DNA of 64,000 nucleotides from an archaeon (GTDB taxonomy: Archaea > Nanobdellota > Nanobdellia > Parvarchaeales > Parvarchaeaceae). The DNA lies in the NCBI GenBank assembly GCA_037443005.1, contig JBBIPE010000002.1, positions 6,815 to 70,814 on the forward strand. The letters are read 5' to 3'. The notes beneath the pieces were generated by a model that was not told the DNA's origin, ran no database searches, and worked only from the letters and a program-made list of their open reading frames with translations. This document shows, in pieces, positions 14 through 60,025 of the stretch (position 1 is the stretch's first letter; every line of letters begins with the position of its first letter). The translations under genes and the position numbers were made by a program.

Positions 14-3000
14 TTGCTGTCTTCTTCTTCATATCTATGCGGAAATGAGACGAATACTATAAATGAAAATGTAATAAATGGTTGGAGTTGGAGTCCGTAT
101 TCGACCGCAGGATCAATAAATCCTGCGCCAAGCACTAATCCTAGTGGTGTTGCAGAGATCGGAGGATGCGAGGCCGGAAGGGATATATTTATCGCAGAAA
201 AACCAAATATAACATTAAAAGAATATAATAATGATACCTTCCAGGATTTCTATTCATGTGCTTCAGGTTATACAGGGACTATAACTGCATGCAGCCAGAA
301 AAGTTCATTGCTTTCATCTAAGTCGATAAGTAATAGTAGTAATACCTGCTATTCTACAAATGTAACACTTATAAATAGCTCTTTATCTACAAAATCTGTA
401 AATGGTACAAATAATGGTGGGCTTGCAAATTCCTGTAATGCATTTAGTGCCCCTGGTTACATATCACCTACGGTACAGGATGACTGTATAGCTTACCATT
501 TGTCGGTTATAAATTCAACATTTTCCAATTATGAGCTGCAGTATGCCAATTCCAGTGATTATGGTGTTGGCATGGGGGTAATCGGAGGAAGTTATCATCT
601 TAATGTTTCTATACCAAACAGCAAAAAACAGAACTCGGTTAAAGATGCATACCTGACAAGCCTTTCAGAGTCGCAGATAGAGGGCGGCAATGATATCCTT
701 ACAGATCTGCTGCCTTATTCATCATTGGAGTCAAATCTTCCAGGCAAGGCCCTCTCTATATCCGCCTTGTATTCTTTTGACATGCTTAATATATTGATGC
801 TGCAGGACCCATCCTTTGGAGTCAGCGGTATACCCGGTTTTGTAAACGGCAGTATGCTAGATTATGCTTTAAGCATATTTACAGGCGGTACATCCGGTAA
901 CTGCGCTCCGCCATACAATGGAAGTGGAGATGCGATATTCACACTGGGTGAAGGTGAGCTTTGTTCTGGTAAGACTCTCCCTTCAAGCTATAAGGAAGGA
1001 GTATTCCTGTCTTTAGGCACATTAAACGAAGGTTTGCATTCCATTCAGTTTTACAGTATAGGCAACTCCACAGAAGAGGCGGAGCCATCTGTTAATGTAT
1101 TCGACAGTGTCGGAAATGCAGTTGATTTAAACAGTGCCTGCTCAAATGGGAACAGCAGGGTTTTCACTTCAACATATACCGGGGGAAAATGGAGCTTTAA
1201 CATAACTTCTGATCAGCAATGCAATCCTATAAACAACAAGCTTTACGGCTACATAGTCAACTGTATCTACCAGACGCCGGGCAATCAAACGTATACTATT
1301 GCATCACAATATTATCTTGCTTACAACCTGCCGACAGTGTGGAATATAAGCTATTCGCTGTTGGTTTCTCCAAAGAGCTATGAGACGGTTCCTACTCCAG
1401 TATACCAGATAAACTATTCGACAGGATCCATACTTACACTTCAGCAGCCGAACAAAACAGTATTCATAGAGAAGGGCCTTCCAACTGGGTATAAATGGGA
1501 TATGGTCTACGATAAAGTAAACAGATCCTCAACTTCAGATGAGGTATATTTCTATTCAATAGACACTCATTCATTTAAAGTGCAGACTCTTTCAAATCAT
1601 TCTGCGATTACGAATTGTTATACAACATACTCACCAACGCCTTCTTCAGGCAGTGCAACATCCGGGACCACAACTTATATACAGTTTGCCGCAAACACAA
1701 CATGTTACAGTTACTTCAGTGAAACTGGTCTGCCTACAGATTTGAATTGGAATGTGACATATAACAATATAATTGGAAGCTCTTCTAAACCTAAACCATT
1801 AAAAGCAAATTCCGCAGGTGCTGCAATTTCTGTAAACAACAAAGAAATAGAATTTATAACCAACAATTCAGGAAGCTATGGTGGTAATTTCTCTTATTAT
1901 ATATCGGATGTAAAGACAACTTCAGCGGCATGTACAGAGGTATTCGAACCGAAACCTGATTCTGGTTATCTGTTAGCAGGGACAAATCAAAGCATTGTAT
2001 TTACAAAGGTTTCTGATACCTGTGTAACAACATTTAAAGAGAGTGGCCTTCCTTTAAATAAAAAATGGTATGTTAAATACAATGGTAGCAACAAGACAGC
2101 TACAATAAACACAATTACATTCTCTACAGGGCCAGGAAATTTCCAGTATTCTGTAAGTTCTCTATCAAATTCGTCAAATGGATGCACTGAAAGTTATATT
2201 CCAAACGCCACATCCGGTTCTCTTAAAGCGGGCAGCTCTCTAAGTATCAAGTTTTCAACAAGTGAATCCTGCATAACCACGTTTACCGAGAAAAATCTTT
2301 CAAGCGGAGATTCCTGGTCAGTTACATTCGCAGGAACAACAGAATCCTCAACAAGCTCAACTATAACCTTTACAACAGGTTCAGGCTCAGATTCATGGTC
2401 AGCAACAGCATCAAGCATAAGTACATCAACAGGCTGTGCAATCTCATATAATTCACTTTCAGGATCTGCTAATTACGGTTCTTCAGTCAGTGTTTCATTT
2501 TCCGGTTCAACTGCCTGTACAACTACATTTTATCCAGGAAATCTACCAAGTTCGTCTACTTGGTCAATAAGTTATGATGGTGTAAGTGGATCAGCATCTG
2601 GAAATGATCCAATAACTCTAACTACAGGCCCGGGTTCTTTCAATGCTTCTCCAAGTGAAGATTATGATTGTTCAACCGGCGGACAATATGTAACTGCAGG
2701 AACGTCTGCTACATTTTCATCGTGGTCATGCACCACTAACTTTTATGTCTGGACTGGAAGCCCAGAGCCTTTTTCTGAAACCTCCTCCGTTACTTTTAAT
2801 GGTAATTCAAAATCAGACCTATGGAATCCTAAAGTCAAGCTTCCAAACGGAGATGATGGTGAGGAATTCACTTTTAATACTGGTAGTTCATCAAGTACAG
2901 AGTCATGGTCTACCACTAATCCTATAAACGGAATATTTGGCGACTGTCGTTATGGGACGGGATATGATCAGTGGAGCGTAGCAACAAATTATGGTTATTC

Positions 3001-3070
3001 TTCATCAGGTAATACATATCCAGGGGAAAGTGTTTACATATACTATTACTCGCCTAGTTGTCAGGGGTAA
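14..3070 (+). CDS. Large secreted/surface protein, Ser/Thr/Asn-rich, probably 5'-partial
   Basis: 1018-aa ORF. The frame stays open to position 2, so the true start may lie upstream of the window. It has dozens of N-x-S/T sequons, and the C-terminal half is built of six Cys-containing ~82-aa repeats. Confidence 0.7.
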   Translation: MLSSSSYLCGNETNTINENVINGWSWSPYSTAGSINPAPSTNPSGVAEIGGCEAGRDIFIAEKPNITLKEYNNDTFQDFYSCASGYTGTITACSQKSSLLSSKSISNSSNTCYSTNVTLINSSLSTKSVNGTNNGGLANSCNAFSAPGYISPTVQDDCIAYHLSVINSTFSNYELQYANSSDYGVGMGVIGGSYHLNVSIPNSKKQNSVKDAYLTSLSESQIEGGNDILTDLLPYSSLESNLPGKALSISALYSFDMLNILMLQDPSFGVSGIPGFVNGSMLDYALSIFTGGTSGNCAPPYNGSGDAIFTLGEGELCSGKTLPSSYKEGVFLSLGTLNEGLHSIQFYSIGNSTEEAEPSVNVFDSVGNAVDLNSACSNGNSRVFTSTYTGGKWSFNITSDQQCNPINNKLYGYIVNCIYQTPGNQTYTIASQYYLAYNLPTVWNISYSLLVSPKSYETVPTPVYQINYSTGSILTLQQPNKTVFIEKGLPTGYKWDMVYDKVNRSSTSDEVYFYSIDTHSFKVQTLSNHSAITNCYTTYSPTPSSGSATSGTTTYIQFAANTTCYSYFSETGLPTDLNWNVTYNNIIGSSSKPKPLKANSAGAAISVNNKEIEFITNNSGSYGGNFSYYISDVKTTSAACTEVFEPKPDSGYLLAGTNQSIVFTKVSDTCVTTFKESGLPLNKKWYVKYNGSNKTATINTITFSTGPGNFQYSVSSLSNSSNGCTESYIPNATSGSLKAGSSLSIKFSTSESCITTFTEKNLSSGDSWSVTFAGTTESSTSSTITFTTGSGSDSWSATASSISTSTGCAISYNSLSGSANYGSSVSVSFSGSTACTTTFYPGNLPSSSTWSISYDGVSGSASGNDPITLTTGPGSFNASPSEDYDCSTGGQYVTAGTSATFSSWSCTTNFYVWTGSPEPFSETSSVTFNGNSKSDLWNPKVKLPNGDDGEEFTFNTGSSSSTESWSTTNPINGIFGDCRYGTGYDQWSVATNYGYSSSGNTYPGESVYIYYYSPSCQG
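1455..2930 (+). repeat. Six tandem protein-domain repeats (~214-318 nt each) inside the surface protein
   Basis: The core C-x-T-T-F-x-E-x-G-L-P-x4-W-x-V-x-Y recurs starting near nt 1457 (TVFIEKGLPTGYKWDMVY), 1703 (CYSYFSETGLPTDLNWNVTY), 2021 (CVTTFKESGLPLNKKWYVKY), 2269 (CITTFTEKNLSSGDSWSVTF), 2515 (CTTTFYPGNLPSSSTWSISY) and 2729 (CTTNFYVW..., degenerate). Confidence 0.75.
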
Positions 3071-8132: not shown

Positions 8133-10058
8133 ATGGATAATACTTTTAGTATTTCGTTTAAAACAACAGATGATATAAAGATACCTGCCAAGATAGTTGA
8201 TCAAGTCATAGGACAGGAGCAGGCCGTTGAGATAATAAAGAAAGCATCTGTTCAGAGGAGAAATGTATTGCTTGTAGGTGCACCAGGTACCGGTAAAAGC
8301 ATGCTAGGACAAGCGCTTTCACAGCTTTTACCCGCCGAAAAACTTATAGATATACTAGCTTTTCCCAATCCAAAGGATGAGAATGAGCCCATTATAAAGA
8401 CAGTTCCAGCAGGTGAAGGCAAAAGAATAGTCAACCAGGCGAAGGCAAGAAACATGTCATCTCTAGCCGGCGGAAACAATATGATAATCTTTCTAGGATT
8501 TATAGTAGCTTTCTTTATAGCCACTTATGTTGTAAGCATGATAGTCTCGGCGCAGAAAAATCCGATATTGGCGGCGGCAAACCAGATTTCGGGTACTCTT
8601 TTTATAATAACAATGCTTATCGGTTTTCTTTTTGTTTTATTGATGTATAGATTAGGTAGAACTTCACTAAGAACAAATGTGCCGGCACCGAAATTACTGC
8701 TAGATAATTCAGAAGCAAAATATGCGCCATTTGTTGATTCCACAGGTTCAAAAGAAGGTGCTTTGCTTGGAGATGTGCAACATGATCCTTTTCAATCTGG
8801 AGGTTTAGGAACCCCGGCGCATGAACGTGTAGTTCTAGGGGATATACATAAAGCAAACGGTGGTGTATTGTTTATAGATGAGATAGCAAATCTATCAGGA
8901 GAAACTCAAATACAACTGTTGACCGCAATGCAGGAAAAGAAGTTAAGTATCACAGGTAGGAGCGAAAGAAGCGCAGGAGCAATGGTAAAAACTAATCTCG
9001 TTCCATGTGATTTCATACTTGTTGGCGCGGGAAATCCAAACACGCTTACACAGATGAGTCCGGCATTAAGGTCAAGGATAAGGGGATACGGTTATGAGAT
9101 ATACATGAACGAGACAATGCCTGATAATATAGAAAACAGGAATAAGATTGCGAGGTTCGTGGCGCAGGAAATAAATAAAGACAAGAAGATACCTCCGTTT
9201 TCAAAGGATGCTGTTATAGAGATAGTTAATGAAGCGAGAAGAAAATCTAATAGGAAAGAGGCTTTAACTCTTAAATTAAGAGAATTGGGCGGAATAATAC
9301 GCGTTGCTGGGGATATAGCGGTAGAAAGGAAGCATTCCGTAGTAACAGGAGATGATGTTTTAAGTTCAAAGAGCTATGCAGGTTCATTTGAGCAGCAGAT
9401 TGCGGCAAGATACATAAAGGAAAAGAAGGATTATGATGTTATACAAGTTACCGGCTCAAGAATAGGAAGAGTAAATGGTCTTGCGGTTATAGAAAATTCC
9501 GATTCCGGTTTGATGTTGCCAATAGAAGCAATAGTTACAAAAAGCATGAGAAAGGGTGCAGGAGAGATAATTGCAACGGGTAAACTTGGTGAAATTGCAC
9601 AAGAAGCAGTTAAGAATGTATCCGCCGTTGTAAAATTATATTCAAATAAACCGCTTACAGATTATGATATACACATACAGTTTCTTCAGGCTTATTCTGG
9701 TGTTGAGGGTGACAGTGCAAGCGTAAGCGTTGCAATAAGTATATTATCCGCATTGACAAACATTCCAATAAAGCAGTCGGTTGCAATGACCGGTTCTCTT
9801 TCTATATGGGGTGAGGTTTTGCCTGTCGGCGGCGTATCCGCAAAGGTCGAGGCCGCGATAAATGCGGGCATAAAAGAGGTTATAATTCCCGCCTCAAATA
9901 TTGATGATTTAGTACTATCAAATCCAAAAGCTGTAAAGATAATACAGGCAAATACAATAGCAGATGTAATAGAGAATGCACTGGTAAAAAGCGCTCAAAA
10001 GGAAAAGCTGCTTAATGCAATAAAGAAGCTGTTAAAGATAAAATATGCCAAAAAGTAA
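8133..10058 (+). CDS. lonB: Archaeal membrane-bound Lon protease (LonB)
   Basis: Walker A GAPGTGKS, two TM helices inserted in the AAA+ module, Walker B VLFIDEI, and a C-terminal protease domain with VEGDSAS catalytic Ser. Confidence 0.9.
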
Positions 10059-12083: not shown

Positions 12084-12159
12084 CAGTTTTTGCGTACCTA
12101 TATGATTTATTTAAAGGCATTATATTAAAATATAAATATAATCCTTGTTTATTTATTCA

Positions 12160-13578
12160 ATGTATAGAGCACAGTCAGCTTTAGAGTATATGATGACGTA
12201 TGGCTGGGCCATTCTAATTATAGTAATTGTAGCAGTTATCCTCTACAGCATGGGTATCTTTAATCCTGCATCAAGTATAACAACCACTTCTACAGGGTTT
12301 TCTCCATTTACTGTTTCCACAACAATATGCACGGATGGCGGATTAAAATTTTTATTAAGTGTCGGGCCCCTACCAAATTCAGCTCAATTTACTAGTTTTA
12401 AAGAGGTATACATAATTTCTGCTTCCGGTACTAATTTTTCTGGAGTCATGTTAAAATCCAATTATAGTCTTCCATTTAATGCAGTTTCTGGAGGTACCTA
12501 CTCTATAGTAGTACCGGGTATATCCTGTAATAGCGCAGGTACAAAATTTACTATCAAAACAGTAATTAACTACGTTGAACATACTTCTGCTGGCATTGTT
12601 AGTTTTAATAGTTCTGGAGTACTTGCAGGAAACGCCGCAAAAGTAAATATAAATAATATTTATGTATCTGATTCGGGCTCTGATTTAATATCTATAATAT
12701 CCCCTAATAATATAGTTATAGGTAATTTTTCTGTAGCAGCATGTGCAAATGGAATAGCATTCCTGCCAGGCACTTATAATTTGTATATTGCCGATCCGTG
12801 CGGAAATGAAGTTTCGATTTATAATGCGTTTACAGGCCAAGTGATCCAAAATATAAAAGGCTGGATGAATGTACCGATAGGCGTTGCAATAACCCCAAAT
12901 AAGGAATATGCTTATGTTGCTAATTTAGATAGCAATAATATAACTGTTATAAATATAAGCGATGGAAATAAAGAAATTAAAAATATAACTGTAGGCAATT
13001 TTCCAAGAAATTCGCTGAATGGTGATGTAATAACACCTAATGGTGCATATGTTTATGCAACAGTAGAGGGAGCAAATCATACTTCTGTTATATCTACAGC
13101 AACAAATACAGTGATCAAAAATATAAGTATGGAGCATCCAAATACTGCAGTAATTTCTCCAAACGGAGATTATGTTTATATAACTGCAAACAAATATGTC
13201 TATAATGTATCTACTAAAACAAATTCAATAGTTGGTGAAATCTCCGCTGGGCTACAGTTGCCATCTGCAACTAATTCTCCATATGGTTTTCCTCTATATG
13301 GTATAACGGTGTCACCAAATGGAAATTATCTATATGTCGCTAATCAAAGTGGAAACAATACTCTAGTTATATCCGCAGCAACACATTCTGTAATTAAGAT
13401 CATAAAAACGTTAGGTGGGCCATCAAATCTTCTTTATGACCCTAACAACAATAATGTGTATATTATACGTAATTTAAATGGTCTTAATAATGTACAAGTT
13501 ATGTCTGCTATCACAAATAGTATAATAGCGAATATAACTGTTGGTTTAACCCCATACGGTATTGGCATGGTAGGTTAA
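12160..13578 (+). CDS. Class III signal peptide (pilin-like) N-terminus fused to a YVTN-type beta-propeller
   Basis: MYRAQSALEYMMTYGWAILIIVIVAV is a prepilin-type signal. It is followed by ~7 repeats of the (Y)VYVAN..SNN(I/V)SVI...TN.VI..I type. The track start at 12145 is a TTG five codons upstream. Confidence 0.75.
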   Translation: MYRAQSALEYMMTYGWAILIIVIVAVILYSMGIFNPASSITTTSTGFSPFTVSTTICTDGGLKFLLSVGPLPNSAQFTSFKEVYIISASGTNFSGVMLKSNYSLPFNAVSGGTYSIVVPGISCNSAGTKFTIKTVINYVEHTSAGIVSFNSSGVLAGNAAKVNINNIYVSDSGSDLISIISPNNIVIGNFSVAACANGIAFLPGTYNLYIADPCGNEVSIYNAFTGQVIQNIKGWMNVPIGVAITPNKEYAYVANLDSNNITVINISDGNKEIKNITVGNFPRNSLNGDVITPNGAYVYATVEGANHTSVISTATNTVIKNISMEHPNTAVISPNGDYVYITANKYVYNVSTKTNSIVGEISAGLQLPSATNSPYGFPLYGITVSPNGNYLYVANQSGNNTLVISAATHSVIKIIKTLGGPSNLLYDPNNNNVYIIRNLNGLNNVQVMSAITNSIIANITVGLTPYGIGMVG

Positions 13579-52250: not shown

Positions 52251-52367
52251 ATTATAATCCTATCTTATGAATTCTTTGTTAATAAACTTTTATTCTTGTA
52301 TTTATATAAACCTAAAAACTCTAAAGTAACCAAAATGTTTAAATACTATTATCTTTAATAGAGAAAT

Positions 52368-52760
52368 ATGATATTCGGAAAGAGCGCACAAGGGTTGCCT
52401 ATCAATACTATAATACTTATTGCAGTCGGTCTCCTTATACTTGTTTTACTTGTCACTTTTGTTTTAGGAGGTTTCAAAGGTCTAGGAGGAGGAGCCAGTG
52501 CGTCTAATAGTGCAATAACGGCTTTTGAGACCCAATGTTCAACTACTGCATCTTCTGCGGCAAGTTCCGGTTCATTTCCTTATGGGTGGTGCAGTAATAC
52601 TATAACAACCTCTACGGGTAAAGTATTGTGGTGCTATACAAACCCATCAAATTTAAAGAATAGCACGACTACTACTTTGTATAATGGTTCTACTTTAGAA
52701 GCTCCTTTACCTCCCGGAGCATCATCCGCACCCGGTGTAGTCTATTGCCCAGCGCCTTAA
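52368..52760 (+). CDS. Small secreted pilin-like protein (N-terminal hydrophobic helix, Cys-containing Ser/Thr-rich C-terminus)
   Basis: MIFGKSAQGLPINTIILIAVGLLILVLLVTFVL has a short charged leader followed by a ~25-aa hydrophobic segment, similar to the 59255 ORF N-terminus. Confidence 0.5.
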   Translation: MIFGKSAQGLPINTIILIAVGLLILVLLVTFVLGGFKGLGGGASASNSAITAFETQCSTTASSAASSGSFPYGWCSNTITTSTGKVLWCYTNPSNLKNSTTTTLYNGSTLEAPLPPGASSAPGVVYCPAP

Positions 52761-52821
52761 ATTTGTAGTTGTTTTTACCTAAACGGATAGACTTTTATTT
52801 GTTTGGAAACCTAATTAATAA

Positions 52822-53475
52822 ATGATTAAATCCAATTCTAAAAGAAGTAGTATAGCAAAGAATATTTTGGTGTTTTTTATCTTAATAGCTATTTTAATAG
52901 TTATTTTCTATGGTTTCAAGCAGCATATAATACTATTCAATTCATGCTATTTTGCAAACTCAACGCTTGCAGTTAACAGTTCCGGGCCTTTCTGTCTGCC
53001 GAATAACGGAGTAAACATAATAATAAACAAGTCTATATTGTCTTATTATCCTAATTCTACTTTGGCTATTCATAACCAGAACGTATCAGCATTGCCGTTT
53101 TCATTTTTGGACGGCAAGCCTTACATAACCGTTTGGAACGAGCCTTCCAGCATAGGGCCGGATTCCTACTCATTTTTGACAATACCGGATACTTTCAAAG
53201 TACATATGCAGTATAACGCAAGCGTGGATACATATTTCATAGTCATGACTAACCAGCAGTACATATACTGGGTCAGAAGCGGTGGAAGCCTGGCAAATGA
53301 TACAACTCTTATGAAAGAGGGGAATAATATATCTGTTTGGTTTAATCAGAGTACAGGCTGTGCGGGTTACGTGGCAGTTATAGAGTCCTTAAATAAACAG
53401 CCTGTTTCAATTTCTCCTGATGAGCAGATACTATATGCGCCAGCAAGCCAGCCGACGGGGGCCTGTTCAATATAG
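52822..53475 (+). CDS. N-terminally anchored extracellular protein, unknown function
   Basis: 217 aa with one TM helix, several sequons and four Cys. Confidence 0.45.
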   Translation: MIKSNSKRSSIAKNILVFFILIAILIVIFYGFKQHIILFNSCYFANSTLAVNSSGPFCLPNNGVNIIINKSILSYYPNSTLAIHNQNVSALPFSFLDGKPYITVWNEPSSIGPDSYSFLTIPDTFKVHMQYNASVDTYFIVMTNQQYIYWVRSGGSLANDTTLMKEGNNISVWFNQSTGCAGYVAVIESLNKQPVSISPDEQILYAPASQPTGACSI

Positions 53476-53515
53476 TACAGTCAATTATAAATCCTCCAAA
53501 GTTTTATTAATAAGT

Positions 53516-54127
53516 ATGGAAGTAGATGTTTTTGACGCTGTAAATGAATTAAAGGGCTTTTATGAAAATAATTCAGAAATTTCAAAGATAAGTGCTTTAA
53601 TTCCATATAAAAAAGTAGAGATAAGTATGGAATACAAAGATGGTGTGATAAGGATAAAAGCGCAGCATCCTCTGTCGATAAAAATATATAAAATATACAA
53701 TATACTTATGAGGCTTTTCATGGTGAATTCCGTGAAGCTTACAATGGATTTTATGGAAAACAATCAGCAAAAGTCGGTTTCAAAGCAGTTCGGTCCAAAT
53801 GAGGATATAAATCCTATAATAGACGATCTTAAGGAACTGCCACATGATAGCATCTCTGATATTGTGGTTGATACAGATTATTTTAAGCTTGTCGAGACGC
53901 AGGATATGACTGACAATGTTTCAATAATGCTCAAGAAGAGCGGCAAAAAGGAACTTTTCACAAGCTTTTCAAATTATCTTTTTCCATTTGCGAATATGCC
54001 TGCAAATGAGTCCTTAAAGGAAGAGATAAACTTTTTAAAGAGTGAGGACGAGTTGACTGTTGATATGTCAATAAAAATAGACAATTCACCAGTTGGTGTA
54101 AAATCTAAAAAGGTGAGACTTATCTAA
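53516..54127 (+). CDS. Hypothetical cytoplasmic protein, first gene of the KaiC-like/GTPase/Roadblock cluster
   Basis: ATG at 53516 (MEVDVFDAVNELKG). About 203 aa with no recognised motif. It ends 4 nt before the next gene. Confidence 0.45.
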   Translation: MEVDVFDAVNELKGFYENNSEISKISALIPYKKVEISMEYKDGVIRIKAQHPLSIKIYKIYNILMRLFMVNSVKLTMDFMENNQQKSVSKQFGPNEDINPIIDDLKELPHDSISDIVVDTDYFKLVETQDMTDNVSIMLKKSGKKELFTSFSNYLFPFANMPANESLKEEINFLKSEDELTVDMSIKIDNSPVGVKSKKVRLI

Positions 54128-54131
54128 TAAT

Positions 54132-54800
54132 ATGGAAGGGTTAAAGACAGGCTTTGGGTCGTTTGATGAATTAACAGGGGGATTAGACTATAGAAAAGTG
54201 TACTCATTGTTCGGAAATAAAGAATCTGGCAAGGAGCAGTTCCTATACAAACTTGTACAGTCGGCGCTGGCTAGCAGAAATTCGATTGTTTACGTGTTAA
54301 CCTCTAAATCATATTCAGAACTTATAAATGAGTTTAATTCCAGGAATATCCCCATAAACCAGTATCTTGGAAAGGATTTTATAATTCTTGATGATTTCAG
54401 CAGGACAAATTCTCCGAATCTTACGGACAATGCATATGCAAAGATTCTGAACGGCCCTATCGATCTGACGGGTTTATCCGTTGCGCTTTCCAATACAAAC
54501 AGCGATTTTATAAAGGATGCAAAAACGGTAATAAACATCTTTGACAATCTATCCAATCTTCTGATATATAATAATCCGGTAACTGTTTATAGGTTCCTCC
54601 AGTTTATATGCGGAAAATCTAAAACAGCTGGTGTTACAACTTTCTTTTCATTGGATACAGTAATGCACCCTCCAGATGTTATAGAGACTATAAAGAATCT
54701 TTCGGATACAATTATAACTTTAGATCTTCAAAACGGTAAGAGAGTTTTTACTTTGGTTGGAGCAAGCAGAGAAGTTTTGGAGCCAAAGGAGATTGGATGA
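54132..54800 (+). CDS. KaiC/RecA-superfamily (FlaH/ArlH-like) protein with deviant Walker A
   Basis: LKTGFGSFDELTGGLDYRKVYSLFGNKESGKEQF is a KaiC-like N-terminus whose P-loop GNKESGKE has Glu in place of Ser/Thr. Walker B-like FIILDD. Confidence 0.6.
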   Translation: MEGLKTGFGSFDELTGGLDYRKVYSLFGNKESGKEQFLYKLVQSALASRNSIVYVLTSKSYSELINEFNSRNIPINQYLGKDFIILDDFSRTNSPNLTDNAYAKILNGPIDLTGLSVALSNTNSDFIKDAKTVINIFDNLSNLLIYNNPVTVYRFLQFICGKSKTAGVTTFFSLDTVMHPPDVIETIKNLSDTIITLDLQNGKRVFTLVGASREVLEPKEIG

Positions 54801-54834
54801 ATACATTTAAAAACTTGAAGATTTATAAGATTAT

Positions 54835-56073
54835 ATGGTAGAATATAAAGGTCTGGATGGAATTGAAGAGGATATAGATCCATATTTTGGAATAGCCAAA
54901 CTTGATGAACAGCTTAAAGGTATCCCATCAAAGAAAATAGTTTTAATCTCAGCTTCCCCTTCTGTGGGAAATGAGGTTTTTGGGTATCAGATAATAAACA
55001 AAAACATAGACGAGAATGTTAAGACATTGGTTTTTCTCAACAGAACCTCACCGCAATCCTATCTCACAGAGATGAAAGAGTACGATTTGCCTTCCAATGA
55101 CAAATTATTCTTAATAGATGCATATAGTGGAATAACAGGTATAAAAACAGATGAAACCGATCATATAAAAGTTATAAATAATCCTTATGACAGGGAGGAG
55201 GTAAAATCGACTATACTGTCTGAGCTAGAAAAAGGATACGGTCTTTTTGTCGTTGATTCACTTTCATTACTAGTGGACTTTTTTGATTTTGACTATGTAA
55301 ACTCATTTGTATTGGAACTTAAAAAAGTCATGGAAAAGAATGATTCTGCGGCTGTTATGCTATTTACCGAATGGGGATATAGCGATGAAAACTTCAAAAA
55401 ATTAGCCTCAAACGTAAATTCTATAATAGAGATCAAAGGCATAGAAAAGAGGGTGATATTTGGGCAGTATTTCGCTGTGGTTAACTGTGATTGGATCACT
55501 GAAAAAAGCAATTTCTCCTCTGTTCTATTTAAGGCTATGAAACCTGGGGGAATAAAGGTTTATTTCCCGAAGATACTTGTAACAGGGCCTACTGATGCAG
55601 GTAAGAGCTCGTTTATACACAGTGCTTCGAAGGATGCAATCAGCGTTGATAAATTAGGAGGGACAATTGCACTTGATCATGGCAATGTCGATTATAATGG
55701 TTACAGGGCAGATTTGTTTGGTACTCCTGGACAGGAGAGATTTGATCCTCTACTGAGAATGCTTGGAGGGGAGGCAATAGGTGTGTTTTTAATTGTGGAC
55801 TCCACAAAACCGGAGCAGTTTCCAAGGGCAATAGAAATGCTCAGAAAAACCGAAACTTACGGCCTGCCTGTCGTTGTTGTTGCAAATAAGGCAGATCTAA
55901 AAGGAGCATTAAGCAAGGAAGATATAAGATCTAGACTTCATCTGGATTCTGCTATAGATCTTGTGCAGACTTTTGCGGAGGATCTGTCGAAAATTGATCC
56001 AAATGAGCCTACAAAATTAAAGGAGGAAGGTATTCACGAGGCTTTGTCAGTTTTGTTCAAGCAGCTGACATAG
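54835..56073 (+). CDS. Fusion protein: degenerate KaiC/RecA-like domain + small Ras-like GTPase (COG2229/MglA-like)
   Basis: The N-terminal ~240 aa have a RecA-like layout (FGIAKLDEQLKGIP..IVLISASPSVGNE with no GK[ST]; Walker B-like LFVVDSLS). The C-terminal ~170 aa (nt ~55567-56073) carry G1 GPTDAGKS, G3 LFGTPGQERF and G4 NKAD. Confidence 0.65.
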   Translation: MVEYKGLDGIEEDIDPYFGIAKLDEQLKGIPSKKIVLISASPSVGNEVFGYQIINKNIDENVKTLVFLNRTSPQSYLTEMKEYDLPSNDKLFLIDAYSGITGIKTDETDHIKVINNPYDREEVKSTILSELEKGYGLFVVDSLSLLVDFFDFDYVNSFVLELKKVMEKNDSAAVMLFTEWGYSDENFKKLASNVNSIIEIKGIEKRVIFGQYFAVVNCDWITEKSNFSSVLFKAMKPGGIKVYFPKILVTGPTDAGKSSFIHSASKDAISVDKLGGTIALDHGNVDYNGYRADLFGTPGQERFDPLLRMLGGEAIGVFLIVDSTKPEQFPRAIEMLRKTETYGLPVVVVANKADLKGALSKEDIRSRLHLDSAIDLVQTFAEDLSKIDPNEPTKLKEEGIHEALSVLFKQLT

Positions 56074-56103
56074 TTATTTAAATACGTAATTTATAAATTA
56101 AAT

Positions 56104-56478
56104 ATGGCTACAAAATCTGAACAGCTCAAAGGTGTTTTACAAAGATTAAGTACTGTAGGTGGTATTAAAGCATCTGCAGTAATATCTGCAAATGGTCTTC
56201 CTATGGTTTCACTTATGCCTGAAGATGTAGACCCTAATACTTTTGCAGCTATGCTTGCATCAATGGTTGGGTCTGCAGAGACAGCATTAAAGTCACTTGG
56301 TGCAAAGAATACACTTGATAGGGTAGTTGCTGAATCCAAAGATATAAGAGTCGTTGCTGTGCAAGCAGGTACTGATGCTATATTGACTATAATGATAGAC
56401 CCTAATACAAACTATGGACTTATTCTTCTGGAATCAAAGAAAGCTTCGGACGAGATAGCAGGCATAATGAGTCAATAA
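56104..56478 (+). CDS. Roadblock/LC7 (MglB-like) domain protein
   Basis: 124 aa. LQRLSTVGGIKASAVISANGLPM...AAMLASM...RVVAVQAG..AILTIM matches the Roadblock/LC7 pattern. It lies directly downstream of the GTPase fusion. Confidence 0.7.
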   Translation: MATKSEQLKGVLQRLSTVGGIKASAVISANGLPMVSLMPEDVDPNTFAAMLASMVGSAETALKSLGAKNTLDRVVAESKDIRVVAVQAGTDAILTIMIDPNTNYGLILLESKKASDEIAGIMSQ

Positions 56479-56626
56479 ATAAAAATACGCTTATCTCATT
56501 TTAATCTTAATTTTTTTTGATTTACTTAGTTATTGTTTATATAAAGTTGTTTTAATAATTGTCGCAGCTATTCCTATTTATGATACTTATTTATAAACTG
56601 CCAAGTAAAAGATATAATGTTATTGA

Positions 56627-56710
56627 GCTCAGGTTGCGTAACCTGGCATCGCGTAAGCCTGGAGAGCTTATGGGAGCAATCCCTTGAGGGTCCGAATCCC
56701 TCCCTGAGCG
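56627..56710 (+). tRNA. tRNA-Ser (GGA)
   Basis: Acceptor GCTCAGG/CCTGAGC, anticodon arm TAAGC-CTGGAGA-GCTTA, a long variable arm, T arm GAGGG-TCCGAAT-CCCTC and discriminator G. Confidence 0.9.
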
Positions 56711-56719
56711 CTTAATTTT

Positions 56720-59254: not shown

Positions 59255-59431
59255 ATGAAGTTAAATAGGAAAGGAATGGAGCTTGGGATAACAATAATAA
59301 TCATAATAGTAATCGCCCTAGCATTGCTTGTTATACTCTTATTTTTGATAAAAAGCGGTATTTTCGGTCCTGTTACCGGCCTTATAAAATCAGCTCCAAA
59401 TACCTCATCAATAACTAATTCTGTACCTTAA
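59255..59431 (+). CDS. 58-aa pilin-like protein with class III-type signal (below ORF-track cutoff)
   Basis: The ORF encodes MKLNRKGMELGITIIIIIVIALALLVILLFLIKSGIFGPVTGLIKSAPNTSSITNSVP, with a basic leader ending in KG followed by a long hydrophobic helix. Confidence 0.5.
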   Translation: MKLNRKGMELGITIIIIIVIALALLVILLFLIKSGIFGPVTGLIKSAPNTSSITNSVP

Positions 59432-59569: not shown

Positions 59570-60025
59570 TCAACTAAAAGAGCATTTTTTAGAATAATAA
59601 ATTGAATAGTTCTTACCGGCATTTAAGTTTACTGCCTTAAAAGCAGTGCTGGATGATGTTAAATTTGAGCATTCCTCTCCATAGTTTGAAATTATAGGAT
59701 ATATTATAACAGTGTATGTTCCAGGGGAGGAGGATACACTTATTTGGTTATTAAGGGGATTTGTATAATTTGCACCATTAAATTTTATTGTCCAACTGTA
59801 CACAGAGCTTGAAAAAGGCTGGCATGAAGAACTGCAGTTATAATCAATAAAATTCGTTGTTATGGTTGAGAACTGACCTCCATTAGAGGTTTTTATATAC
59901 TTTGTAAGTCCGCTAAAACTACTGACTATATAGGTTCTTATCGCTGAATCAAATACTAATAGAATAACTATTGCTATTATTGCGGTTATAAGCACCCACA
60001 TACTAAAGTTCATCTGGCCTTTCAT
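59570..60025 (-). CDS. Class III signal peptide (pilin-like) protein
   Basis: MKGQMNFSMWVLITAIIAIVILLVF has a K-G|Q site and a hydrophobic helix, with a Ser/Asn-rich C-terminus containing Cys. It overlaps the upstream methyltransferase gene by 4 nt. Confidence 0.6.
   Translation of the reverse strand: MKGQMNFSMWVLITAIIAIVILLVFDSAIRTYIVSSFSGLTKYIKTSNGGQFSTITTNFIDYNCSSSCQPFSSSVYSWTIKFNGANYTNPLNNQISVSSSPGTYTVIIYPIISNYGEECSNLTSSSTAFKAVNLNAGKNYSIYYSKKCSFS

Follow-up and report, generated by a model that had tools for sequence, protein, structure and literature searches.

The window considered here, a stretch of 64,000 nucleotides (nt) from an archaeal contig (assembly GCA_037443005.1, contig JBBIPE010000002.1, positions 6,815 to 70,814 of the forward strand), carries at positions 52,368 to 56,478 six genes around a fusion protein that joins a KaiC-like domain to a small GTPase. 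The host belongs to Candidatus Parvarchaeota (ARMAN-4/5 group, DPANN), and the closest homologues of the fusion, 80-84% identical, are named accordingly; the source setting of this Parvarchaeota host is an acid mine. The genes and the two domains of the fusion, with protein lengths in amino acids (aa), are as follows.

52368-52760, + strand: probable pilin-like protein, 130 aa, with a short charged N-terminus, a hydrophobic segment and a variable C-terminal part.
52822-53475, + strand: membrane-anchored, probably extracellular protein, 217 aa, with one N-terminal hydrophobic segment.
53516-54127, + strand: DPANN-specific cytoplasmic protein, 203 aa, with a confidently predicted alpha/beta fold.
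54132-54800, + strand: KaiC-like protein, single domain, DUF7504-type, 222 aa (Pfam KaiC 1.6e-8, 34.7 bits; DUF7504 1.1e-9).
54835-56073, + strand: fusion protein, 412 aa (ORF listing and Pfam).
54889..55563, + strand: inactivated KaiC (iKaiC) domain of the fusion, residues 19-243 (Pfam KaiC 9.4e-8, 32.1 bits, cut-off 26.6).
55567..56061, + strand: MglA-type small GTPase domain of the fusion, residues 245-409 (TIGR00231 small_GTP 5e-16; Arf 1.7e-12).
56104-56478, + strand: Roadblock/LC7 (MglB-like) protein, 124 aa (Pfam Robl_LC7 PF03259 6e-13, 48.8 bits, cut-off 23).

All six open reading frames (ORFs) lie on one strand with spacers of 61, 40, 4, 34 and 30 nt, and the co-directional genes, coordinates and spacers of the original prediction, which had been made from the letters of the window and a list of its ORFs, were all borne out by the ORF listing. 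In the case of the third gene, the mechanical ORF start lies at 53420; because every homologue begins at the Met of 53516, this latter start (203 aa) is the correct one. The assignment of the first two products to the membrane and of the last four to the cytoplasm likewise agrees with the hydrophobicity profile. The 130-aa and 217-aa proteins have one hydrophobic N-terminal segment each (Kyte-Doolittle 19-residue mean of 3.4 and 2.9), and no such segment was detected by Kyte-Doolittle in the four downstream proteins (203, 222, 412 and 124 aa). Furthermore, the domain calls made at the outset hold when Pfam, NCBIfam and PDB profile matches are considered.

To describe the fusion protein, a profile of its family (17 homologues) was compared to solved structures, where it matched the KaiC-like PH0284 at 7e-24 and Arf/Arl proteins at about 1e-12. 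The KaiC/RecA fold that had been presumed for both the N-terminal domain of the fusion and the product of 54132 was thus confirmed by profiles. GGPGTGKT of PH0284 aligns with a-s-P-G-v-e-n of the fusion family. At this Walker A position the family reads PSVGNE or PGVEG[ED], with GK[ST] in 0 of 81 fusion sequences, and the Walker A lysine is missing from the fused KaiC domain in all sequences examined. Because the Walker A motif is never GK[S/T], the fused domain is classified as an inactivated KaiC, in the iKaiC sense of Galperin et al. 2018. Bona fide KaiC proteins have two tandem RecA-like domains, of which each is equipped with a GxxxxGK[ST] Walker A and catalytic glutamates. The 222-aa protein and the fusion contain a single KaiC domain each, and the position of the glutamate pair reads SKS in the former and RTS in the latter; both belong to the Pfam PF06745 superfamily, scoring 34.7 and 32.1 bits against the cut-off of 26.6.

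The G domain, on the other side of the fusion, is intact. The window protein shows G1 TGPTDAGKS, G3 GTPGQ and G4 NKAD, all conserved family-wide, the family motifs being G1 GPxxAGK[ST], a G2 Thr, G3 GTPGQ and G4 NKxD. G3 reads GTPGQ in 79 of the 81 fusion sequences and GSPGQ in the other two. This family-wide conservation removes the concern that the GTPase motifs could be chance matches. G2 reads LGGTI in the window (GGT) and LGTT[IV] in most relatives, in both cases without Arg.

These motifs recall MglA. In the survey of Wuichet & Sogaard-Andersen (2014, PMC4316618), MglA groups 2-5 have a GTPGQ G3, a Thr at the place of the group-1 arginine finger and an adjacent MglB gene, while group 1 has TVPGQ; archaeal MglA group 4 was found mainly in methanogens and had no conserved neighbours, and only single-domain proteins were taken. 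The window fusion and its family likewise lack the canonical Asp of G3 and read GTPGQ, they have no Arg by G2, as in groups 2-5 and unlike group 1, and they are encoded next to a Roadblock gene (spacer of 30 nt in the window; 72 of 78 loci, as described below). As there is no intrinsic arginine finger (Gly or Thr instead), the catalytic mechanism of MglA group 1 is not applicable. The fusion departs from MglA in its size, with 412 aa and a KaiC-like N-domain of ~225 residues compared to the ~160-200 aa of single-domain MglA proteins. Judging from GTPGQ and from Thr or Gly at the place of the arginine finger, the label ‘MglA-type’ appears better supported than the earlier reader could know.

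In the case of the Roadblock protein, the best solved structures were an archaeal-type Roadblock (9jue, 3.7e-12) and, second, an Asgard one (7f8m), with M. xanthus MglB at 1.7e-5; a literature search found no mention of PDB entry 9jue. The MglB equivalog NF052242 (Thermus type) gave 16.9 bits against a cut-off of 200, and the 124-aa protein is therefore a Roadblock-family relative rather than an MglB orthologue. An Asp-Gly pair has been noted for MglBs coupled to MglA groups 2-5 (PMC4316618). DG is present at this position in 47 of 58 family members and NG in the window.

The stand-alone KaiC-like partner had been predicted as FlaH/KaiC-like. Membership in the KaiC/RecA superfamily stood (Pfam, PDB), with SSO2452 (9e-4) and FlaH 4wia (1.2e-3) as the best PDB matches of the 222-aa protein; a place among ArlH/FlaH proper did not. 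For the two KaiC-like proteins, the ArlH equivalog of NCBIfam gave 20.9 and 18.9 bits against a cut-off of 215, and FlaH PRK06067 gave 25.7 and 40.6 bits against a cut-off of 194. A Pfam scan of 21 of the 24 ORFs of at least 250 aa detected no arl genes in the window. The Walker A of the partner is GNKESGKE, in which the Lys is retained and Glu replaces Ser/Thr. Across loci, GK[E/D] is found in about three quarters of the partners and GKS in the rest, the latter only in Archaeoglobaceae, Methanobacterium and Hydrothermarchaeales. A P-loop with an acidic residue at the Ser/Thr position that binds Mg2+ is an unusual, conserved variant.

A word-indexed search returned 1053 fusion homologues, and a scan with one representative for each GTDB species showed relatives of the fusion to be encoded in at least 574 archaeal genomes at the species level. 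Among the best 120 of the 1053 homologues, almost all measure 388-426 aa, with few truncated ones, and all but two have small-GTPase matches. Gene neighbourhoods were obtained by running iterated hidden Markov models, built from the window proteins, on ORFs called in 79 fetched loci (numbered with an L in the following), and adjacency was counted in 78 of them. In 72 of the 78 loci the strand of the fusion also carries a Roadblock gene no more than 400 nt away, and in 5 more the distance is at most about 2 kb; the Roadblock copy of L020 is cut by the contig end. The stand-alone KaiC-like gene directly adjoins the fusion in 61 of the 78. This triad of fusion, Roadblock and KaiC-like genes was found in Parvarchaeota, Woese-, Nano- and Altiarchaeota, Hydrothermarchaeales and Thermoplasmatota, and also in Methanoperedens, ANME-2, Methanosarcinales including Methanosarcinaceae, Methanocellales, Archaeoglobaceae, Methanobacterium and metagenome-assembled genomes of Halobacteria. 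An arrangement seen again in dozens of genomes is more than chance. Thus, the expectation that the four cytoplasmic genes would recur together held strongly for the three-gene core across Archaea, and for the 203-aa family in Parvarchaeales and Rehaiarchaeum only. The actual unit is a pan-archaeal switch of three genes, which in Parvarchaeales grows to four and then to six.

In loci of DPANN, Archaeoglobaceae and Methanobacterium, the module is interspersed with genes for PAS, HAMP, FIST, V4R, TPR and TrmB proteins, which indicates sensory input and possibly transcriptional output. The V4R gene (PF02830, related to TRAPPC3/Bet3) stands beside the Roadblock gene in Archaeoglobaceae, Halobacteriota, Thermoplasmatota and one DPANN locus, lying 3' of it in most (for example L024 9498-10094, L013, L018 and L071) and 5' in L089 (10847-11506). 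The set of GTPase, Roadblock and V4R recalls eukaryotic GTPase-regulator folds; the V4R paper mentions no GTPase or Roadblock neighbours. Additionally, loci of the Woese/Nanoarchaeota type have a small multi-pass membrane protein of ~105-110 aa between fusion and Roadblock (L089 10214-10537; L090 10229-10561; L011 9200-9526; L020 ~9210-9530). This inserted protein, which has no counterpart in the window, suggests that the module is membrane-associated there. One 6.6-kb contig labelled ‘Anaerolineales bacterium’ (L040, JAIWAT010000091.1) carries the archaeal triad and a TruD-type neighbour as in ANME/Methanosarcinales, and is probably a mis-binned archaeal contig.

To place the triad among known systems, three groups were considered. 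The first is MglA/MglB, as known from M. xanthus, T. thermophilus, groups 2-5 and the actinobacterial conservon CvnB/CvnD, which shares with the triad an Asp-less G domain (GTPGQ) encoded beside a Roadblock/LC7 gene. Unlike there, the G domain of the triad is fused to an inactivated KaiC, has a further KaiC-like partner and finds its best PDB sequence matches in Arf/Arl. The second group are KaiC-like proteins. ArlH/FlaH and CirA are also single-domain KaiC/RecA-fold proteins encoded with type IV pilus (T4P)-related machinery, CirA controlling motility genes by repressing archaellum genes (PMC10983859), and FlaH 4wia is, as said, among the best structural matches of the 222-aa protein. The triad differs in having no arl cluster beside it and equivalog scores far below the cut-offs. 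As the partner has a GKE Walker A and the fused domain none, ArlH-style ATP binding and autophosphorylation are doubtful. iKaiC domains in archaeal signalling hubs have also been described (PMC5847659, citing Makarova, Galperin & Koonin 2017), and these resemble the triad in that divergent or inactivated KaiC domains are fused to a signalling domain, with genes for sensors such as PAS, HAMP and REC-type proteins around them. In the accessible description the fusion partners are REC, HalOD1, PAS and MEDS, and no small-GTPase fusion with an obligatory Roadblock neighbour is mentioned there. The third group comprises the Rag-Ragulator, SRbeta-SRX and TRAPP/V4R platforms, where small GTPases are also regulated by Roadblock-fold dimers. 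Likeness to these eukaryotic and Asgard platforms extends to the V4R (TRAPPC3-like) gene beside Roadblock in Archaeoglobaceae, Halobacteriota and some DPANN, and to the Asgard 7f8m match. In contrast, the triad forms a tight operon, whereas GTPases of Asgard archaea do not as a rule share an operon with Roadblock (PMC10933270); its G3 is of the MglA type, and its KaiC components have no counterpart in the platforms.

The triad thus works like MglA/MglB and like a KaiC hub, and is a full member of neither. The original prediction did not recognise it as a described system, which is only half correct. Neither the iKaiC::GTPase fusion nor the triad was found described in a search of the accessible literature, with a coverage that did not include Makarova et al. 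2017, the likeliest place; the parts, including iKaiC, and the general association of KaiC and Roadblock genes with T4P loci are already known from comparative genomics.

As for the remaining genes of the block, the AlphaFold2 model of the 203-aa protein has a predicted local distance difference test (pLDDT) score of 90.4 and an alpha/beta fold, with many invariant Lys and an invariant FPF motif. No match was obtained in Foldseek against the PDB at E<=1e-3 (TM<=0.22), nor in Pfam, NCBIfam or PADLOC. Sub-threshold Foldseek matches were CYTH/triphosphate-tunnel enzymes (5e-3, TM 0.14) and Roadblock/Ragulator with a probability of at most 0.41. The alpha-beta-beta repeats had led us to consider a tandem-Roadblock pseudo-dimer, which was rejected as hhalign gave a probability of 0.6% against the Roadblock family. 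The family comprises 26 close clusters, all from Parvarchaeota where named, and a profile search of 1.8 billion representatives gave 10 matches at E<=1e-3, of which those with a named source are all DPANN (Rehaiarchaeum, Aenigmarchaeota, Nanoarchaeota, Haiyanarchaeum). The gene lies immediately 5' of the KaiC-like gene in Parvarchaeales and Rehaiarchaeum. Distant relatives in other DPANN (L085 6001-6645; L086 6001-6627; L083 8001-8618) adjoin Sec61beta, thymidylate kinase and an S19e-L39e-L31e-prefoldin-FtsY cluster rather than the triad. Methanoperedens-type triads also lie just 5' of S19e, which could reflect a shared ancestral position or a targeting-related role.

In the 217-aa protein, 9 N-x-S/T sequons and 4 conserved Cys are present; from these features, it is probably extracellular and glycosylated. 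It has no significant Pfam or NCBIfam match, and at the sensitivity used its family was found only in Parvarchaeales loci. In Acidifodinimicrobium (~61% identical) the full six-gene block is present, followed 3' by fibrillarin and Nop, and the upstream VIT1/DUF211 genes are missing. ARMAN-type relatives have a low-molecular-weight phosphatase gene 3', and a TnpB element can lie 5'. The six-gene block is thus kept in both Parvarchaeum and Acidifodinimicrobium while the two flanks change. In one relative (L080 6183-7418), unlike in the window, a TnpB/IS605 gene (OrfB, Cas12f-like) separates DUF211 from the pilin-like gene. The phosphatase gene (PF01451) lies 15 nt past Roadblock in close relatives (L080 11663-12073; L081, L001-L005). 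The window lacks this gene and has the thrS/HPP segment in the opposite orientation to theirs. The phosphatase could belong to the module as an extra component, or be a neighbour of the arsenate-reductase type.

The first gene of the block encodes the 130-aa protein, in which the stretch Q8-F36 (QGLPINTIILIAxGLLILV..F..GGF) is invariant or nearly so in 27 relatives. Most relatives have [KR][AG] before Q8, resulting in a [KR][AG]/Q cleavage-like site (the slash marks the cleavage point here and below), and 4 Cys are invariant in the variable C-terminal region. A conserved H-domain and a variable head match the type IV pilin pattern. The only outside support comes from JGI, where two relatives are labelled ‘UPF0333 family’ and ‘FlaG/FlaF family flagellin’. 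Taken from sequence, ‘pilin-like’ is a probable but not proven description. Other ORFs of the window have similar N-termini. A 477-aa ORF (12145-13578, + strand) starts with a textbook archaeal class III signal peptide, YRAQS/ALEYMMTYGWAILIIVIV, has a weak Lactonase beta-propeller match and is probably a large pilin-like adhesin; a 333-aa relative lies directly 3' of Roadblock in L007 (4477-5478). Class-III-signal-like N-termini are also seen at 59255-59431 (+ strand; RKG/MELGITIIII) and 59570-60025 (- strand; MKGQ/MNFSMWVLITAII), neither with a Pfam match.

Evidence linking the triad to T4P comes from other lineages. In a locus labelled Nanoarchaeota (L090), a canonical KaiC, five proteins with class III signals, T2SSE, two T2SSF and the fusion lie on one strand. 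The fusion is found 134 nt past T2SSF and is followed by the small membrane protein and Roadblock; further 3' come genes for HAMP, PAS and FIST proteins, another Roadblock gene and a KaiC-like gene of the DUF7504 type. L020 contains the same gene set rearranged, with the pilin set and canonical KaiC (1.7e-63) 5' of the fusion and a divergently placed T2SSE (3.6e-31); the two fusions are 53% identical. In two Woesearchaeota loci (L044 and L046) two or three pilin-like genes adjoin the module, and in four Methanobacterium loci two pilin-like genes lie immediately 5' of Roadblock-fusion-KaiC-KaiC-TPR. The strict signal motif GQxxxE[YF] with a hydrophobic run was counted 8 times in the 573 kb that lie no further than 3.5 kb from the fusion, compared to 2 times, 1 of them spurious, in the other 445 kb, the matches not being phylogenetically independent. 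Moreover, KaiC ATPases and Roadblock arCOG02603 are frequent in archaeal T4P loci (Makarova et al. 2016, PMC4858521). The idea of a GTPase switch regulating a T4P-like structure therefore found support in the T4P and pilin-like genes that adjoin the triad in some lineages, while the housekeeping surroundings of most loci speak against it, as does the lack of a pilus ATPase among the window ORFs scanned (21 of the 24 of at least 250 aa). Altogether, the link between triad and T4P is partly supported: real in some lineages, not universal.

Signals for transcription were read from the sequence around the block, and the following elements are candidates.

52338..52345, + strand: putative archaeal TATA box TTTAAATA, 23-30 nt 5' of the ATG of the pilin-like gene.
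52770..52805, + strand: T-rich spacer (TGTTTTT ... CTTTTATTTGTTT) 3' of the pilin-like gene.
56511..56518, + strand: T8 run, 33 nt past the Roadblock stop codon.
56627-56711, + strand: tRNA-Ser(GGA), separately promoted, directly downstream of the operon past the T8 run.

At 23-30 nt from the ATG, the TATA box would imply a transcript with a short leader or none; in this AT-rich genome TATA-like strings are frequent, which makes TTTAAATA an inference only. The spacer could act as a partial oligo-T terminator and/or as a TATA-like element for the 217-aa gene, and the T8 run is the probable end of the transcription unit. A scan for bacterial-type promoters and terminators gave counts at or below shuffle expectation, with models that are bacterial and uninformative for an archaeon. 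Elsewhere in the window, a 1018-aa ORF (14-3070, + strand) matches no Pfam family at E<=0.01.

Based on the observed domain identities, motif states, gene linkage and phyletic spread, we propose a model in which the Roadblock dimer would set the GTP/GDP state of the G domain, in the role of GTPase-activating protein (GAP) and/or guanine nucleotide exchange factor (GEF), like MglB. We infer this GAP/GEF role, as we do the physical interactions and the pilus output that follow; for Roadblock, the reasons are the MglB analogy and the obligatory gene coupling. The G domain, with intact G1-G4 and catalytic Gln, would be covalently tethered to a catalytically dead KaiC/RecA-fold domain, and this domain would most likely co-assemble with the stand-alone KaiC-like partner, which keeps the P-loop lysine and has Glu or Asp at the Mg-binding position, into a hetero-oligomeric RecA-like platform. 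Such a hetero-oligomer is suggested by the adjacency of both genes and by the oligomeric nature of KaiC, RadA and ArlH proteins. The nucleotide state of the GTPase would then change assembly, localisation or partner binding of the platform and so reach an effector. In Parvarchaeales, the switch would have gained the DPANN-specific 203-aa subunit, in one block with the pilin-like and the presumably glycosylated membrane protein. The most economical output in the host would be assembly or placement of a T4P-like filament from the co-located pilin-like and glycoprotein genes, an output for which analogies are ArlH, with its effect on the archaellum motor, CirA, with its effect on arl expression, and MglA/MglB, with theirs on the type IV pili of bacteria; the M. 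xanthus pair governs type IV pilus polarity (PMC4316618; PMC9811614). A GTPase switch on a KaiC scaffold seems to us very probable from these gene products, and a pilus output in the Parvarchaeales host has just under an even chance. For the combined statement, switch and pilus output together, we lean slightly towards acceptance.

Several observations weigh against the reading as a pilus regulator, and some of them favour a rival which we consider possible, if short of probable. According to this rival, the triad is a general signalling switch without pilus output, serving for instance cell polarity, cell division, the remodelling of membranes or a response in transcription or metabolism, and the pilin-like and membrane genes are neighbours by descent. 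Most loci (Methanoperedens, ANME-2, Methanosarcinaceae, Archaeoglobaceae and Methanocellales) have housekeeping, V4R or sensor neighbours, the housekeeping ones being S19e, YhbY-like, PDCD5-like, endonuclease III, TruD, RNase HII, MoaB, aminoacyl-tRNA synthetases, eIF2beta and L10e, and genes of the PAS, HAMP, FIST, V4R, TrmB and TPR kind are the more frequent functional neighbours. T2SSE, searched for in all 79 loci, lies within 8 kb of the fusion in only 1 of the 78 genome loci (L020), plus L090, and these two are the only loci with T4P assembly genes beside an orthologous triad. No T4P ATPase, TadC/platform or prepilin peptidase was found in the same scan of 21 of the window's 24 ORFs of at least 250 aa, nor within 10 kb in close relatives. 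In Rehaiarchaeum, whose fusion is 49% identical, glutamate dehydrogenase, a 192-aa relative of the 203-aa protein, KaiC-like, fusion and Roadblock genes overlap or nearly abut, so that the four cytoplasmic genes stand without the pilin-like and membrane genes; a pilin relative is encoded elsewhere. The pilin-like protein itself has no Pfam match, including PF04021/PF07790, position -2 of the putative cleavage site is occupied by Ser instead of Lys/Arg in the window copy, and its AlphaFold2 model is of low confidence (pLDDT 69.5) without a Foldseek match in the PDB. At least 4 class-III-signal-like ORFs (12145, 52368, 59255 and 59570) are present in the 64 kb and, as such ORFs are dense in the genome, a single adjacency is weak evidence. 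T-rich and TATA-like strings between the genes also blur the limits of the transcription unit. Finally, KaiC-like proteins have been proposed as broad hubs (PMC5847659, PMC10983859). On the other hand, a general switch does not account well for a six-gene block that survives changes of both flanks over ~60% protein identity, nor for complete T4P loci co-directional with the triad in two contigs that differ in gene order and in which the fusions are 53% identical. Pilin-like genes recur by the triad in Woesearchaeota and Methanobacterium, and the census of PMC4858521, which reports Roadblock and KaiC genes in T4P loci, is independent.

Two further explanations concern the GTPase and the type of locus. 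The GTPase-Roadblock pair could be the counterpart of SRbeta-SRX or Rag-Ragulator-like platforms, with a targeting/secretion or ribosome role and the KaiC-like proteins as adaptors. The best solved-structure matches of the G domain are indeed Arl3, Arl2 and Arf1, not MglA, which also counts against an MglA-type reading; they are consistent with it in so far as Arf/Sar/SRbeta are closest to archaeal MglA group 4 and Rup group 2 (PMC4316618). Precomputed SRPRB matches (PF09439) exist in many homologues, with a weak Pfam match in the window fusion, but are weaker than those to Arf/Ras, and G3 is of the MglA type, without the Asp kept by Arf/Sar/SRbeta. Methanoperedens-type triads directly 5' of the S19e cluster, and distant 203-aa relatives by Sec61beta and the S19e-L39e-L31e-prefoldin-FtsY cluster in other DPANN, would fit such a role; however, the S19e link is limited to one clade (Methanoperedens/ANME-2) and may reflect conserved position, and neither the window nor its relatives have an adjacent signal recognition particle or Sec gene. 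This makes the explanation very unlikely. A reading of the module as antiviral defence or as a piece of a mobile element is more improbable still: NTPase-rich small operons are typical of defence islands and a TnpB/IS605 gene lies beside the block in one relative, but PADLOC matches were no better than noise, nuclease or other effector-type domains are lacking, and in many phyla the block is vertically conserved, single-copy and set among housekeeping genes.

The GTPase switch on a KaiC scaffold could be taken further, in a form that we regard as doubtful. The triad would then be the archaeal equivalent of the MglA/MglB polarity module with a different read-out, in which the dead KaiC subunit sits in a ring and the GTP/GDP state, set by Roadblock and by PAS/HAMP/FIST/V4R inputs, gates docking onto the T4P/archaellum ATPase and so decides when or where filaments form. 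If true, Archaea would have their first defined functional small-GTPase switch, Asgard predictions aside, and GTPase effectors a new class, and the filaments could mediate host attachment of an episymbiotic DPANN cell.

Small GTPases of the Ras-like kind that pair with Roadblock proteins are considered ancient. A three-gene module over at least 12 archaeal orders joins the MglA/MglB theme to the KaiC signalling-hub theme and provides a concrete, testable complex, to which the partner's unusual GK[E/D] Walker A and the 203-aa protein, a fold orphan, offer additional access. For DPANN, whose lifestyle depends on cell-cell contact, the module is a candidate regulator of surface filaments.

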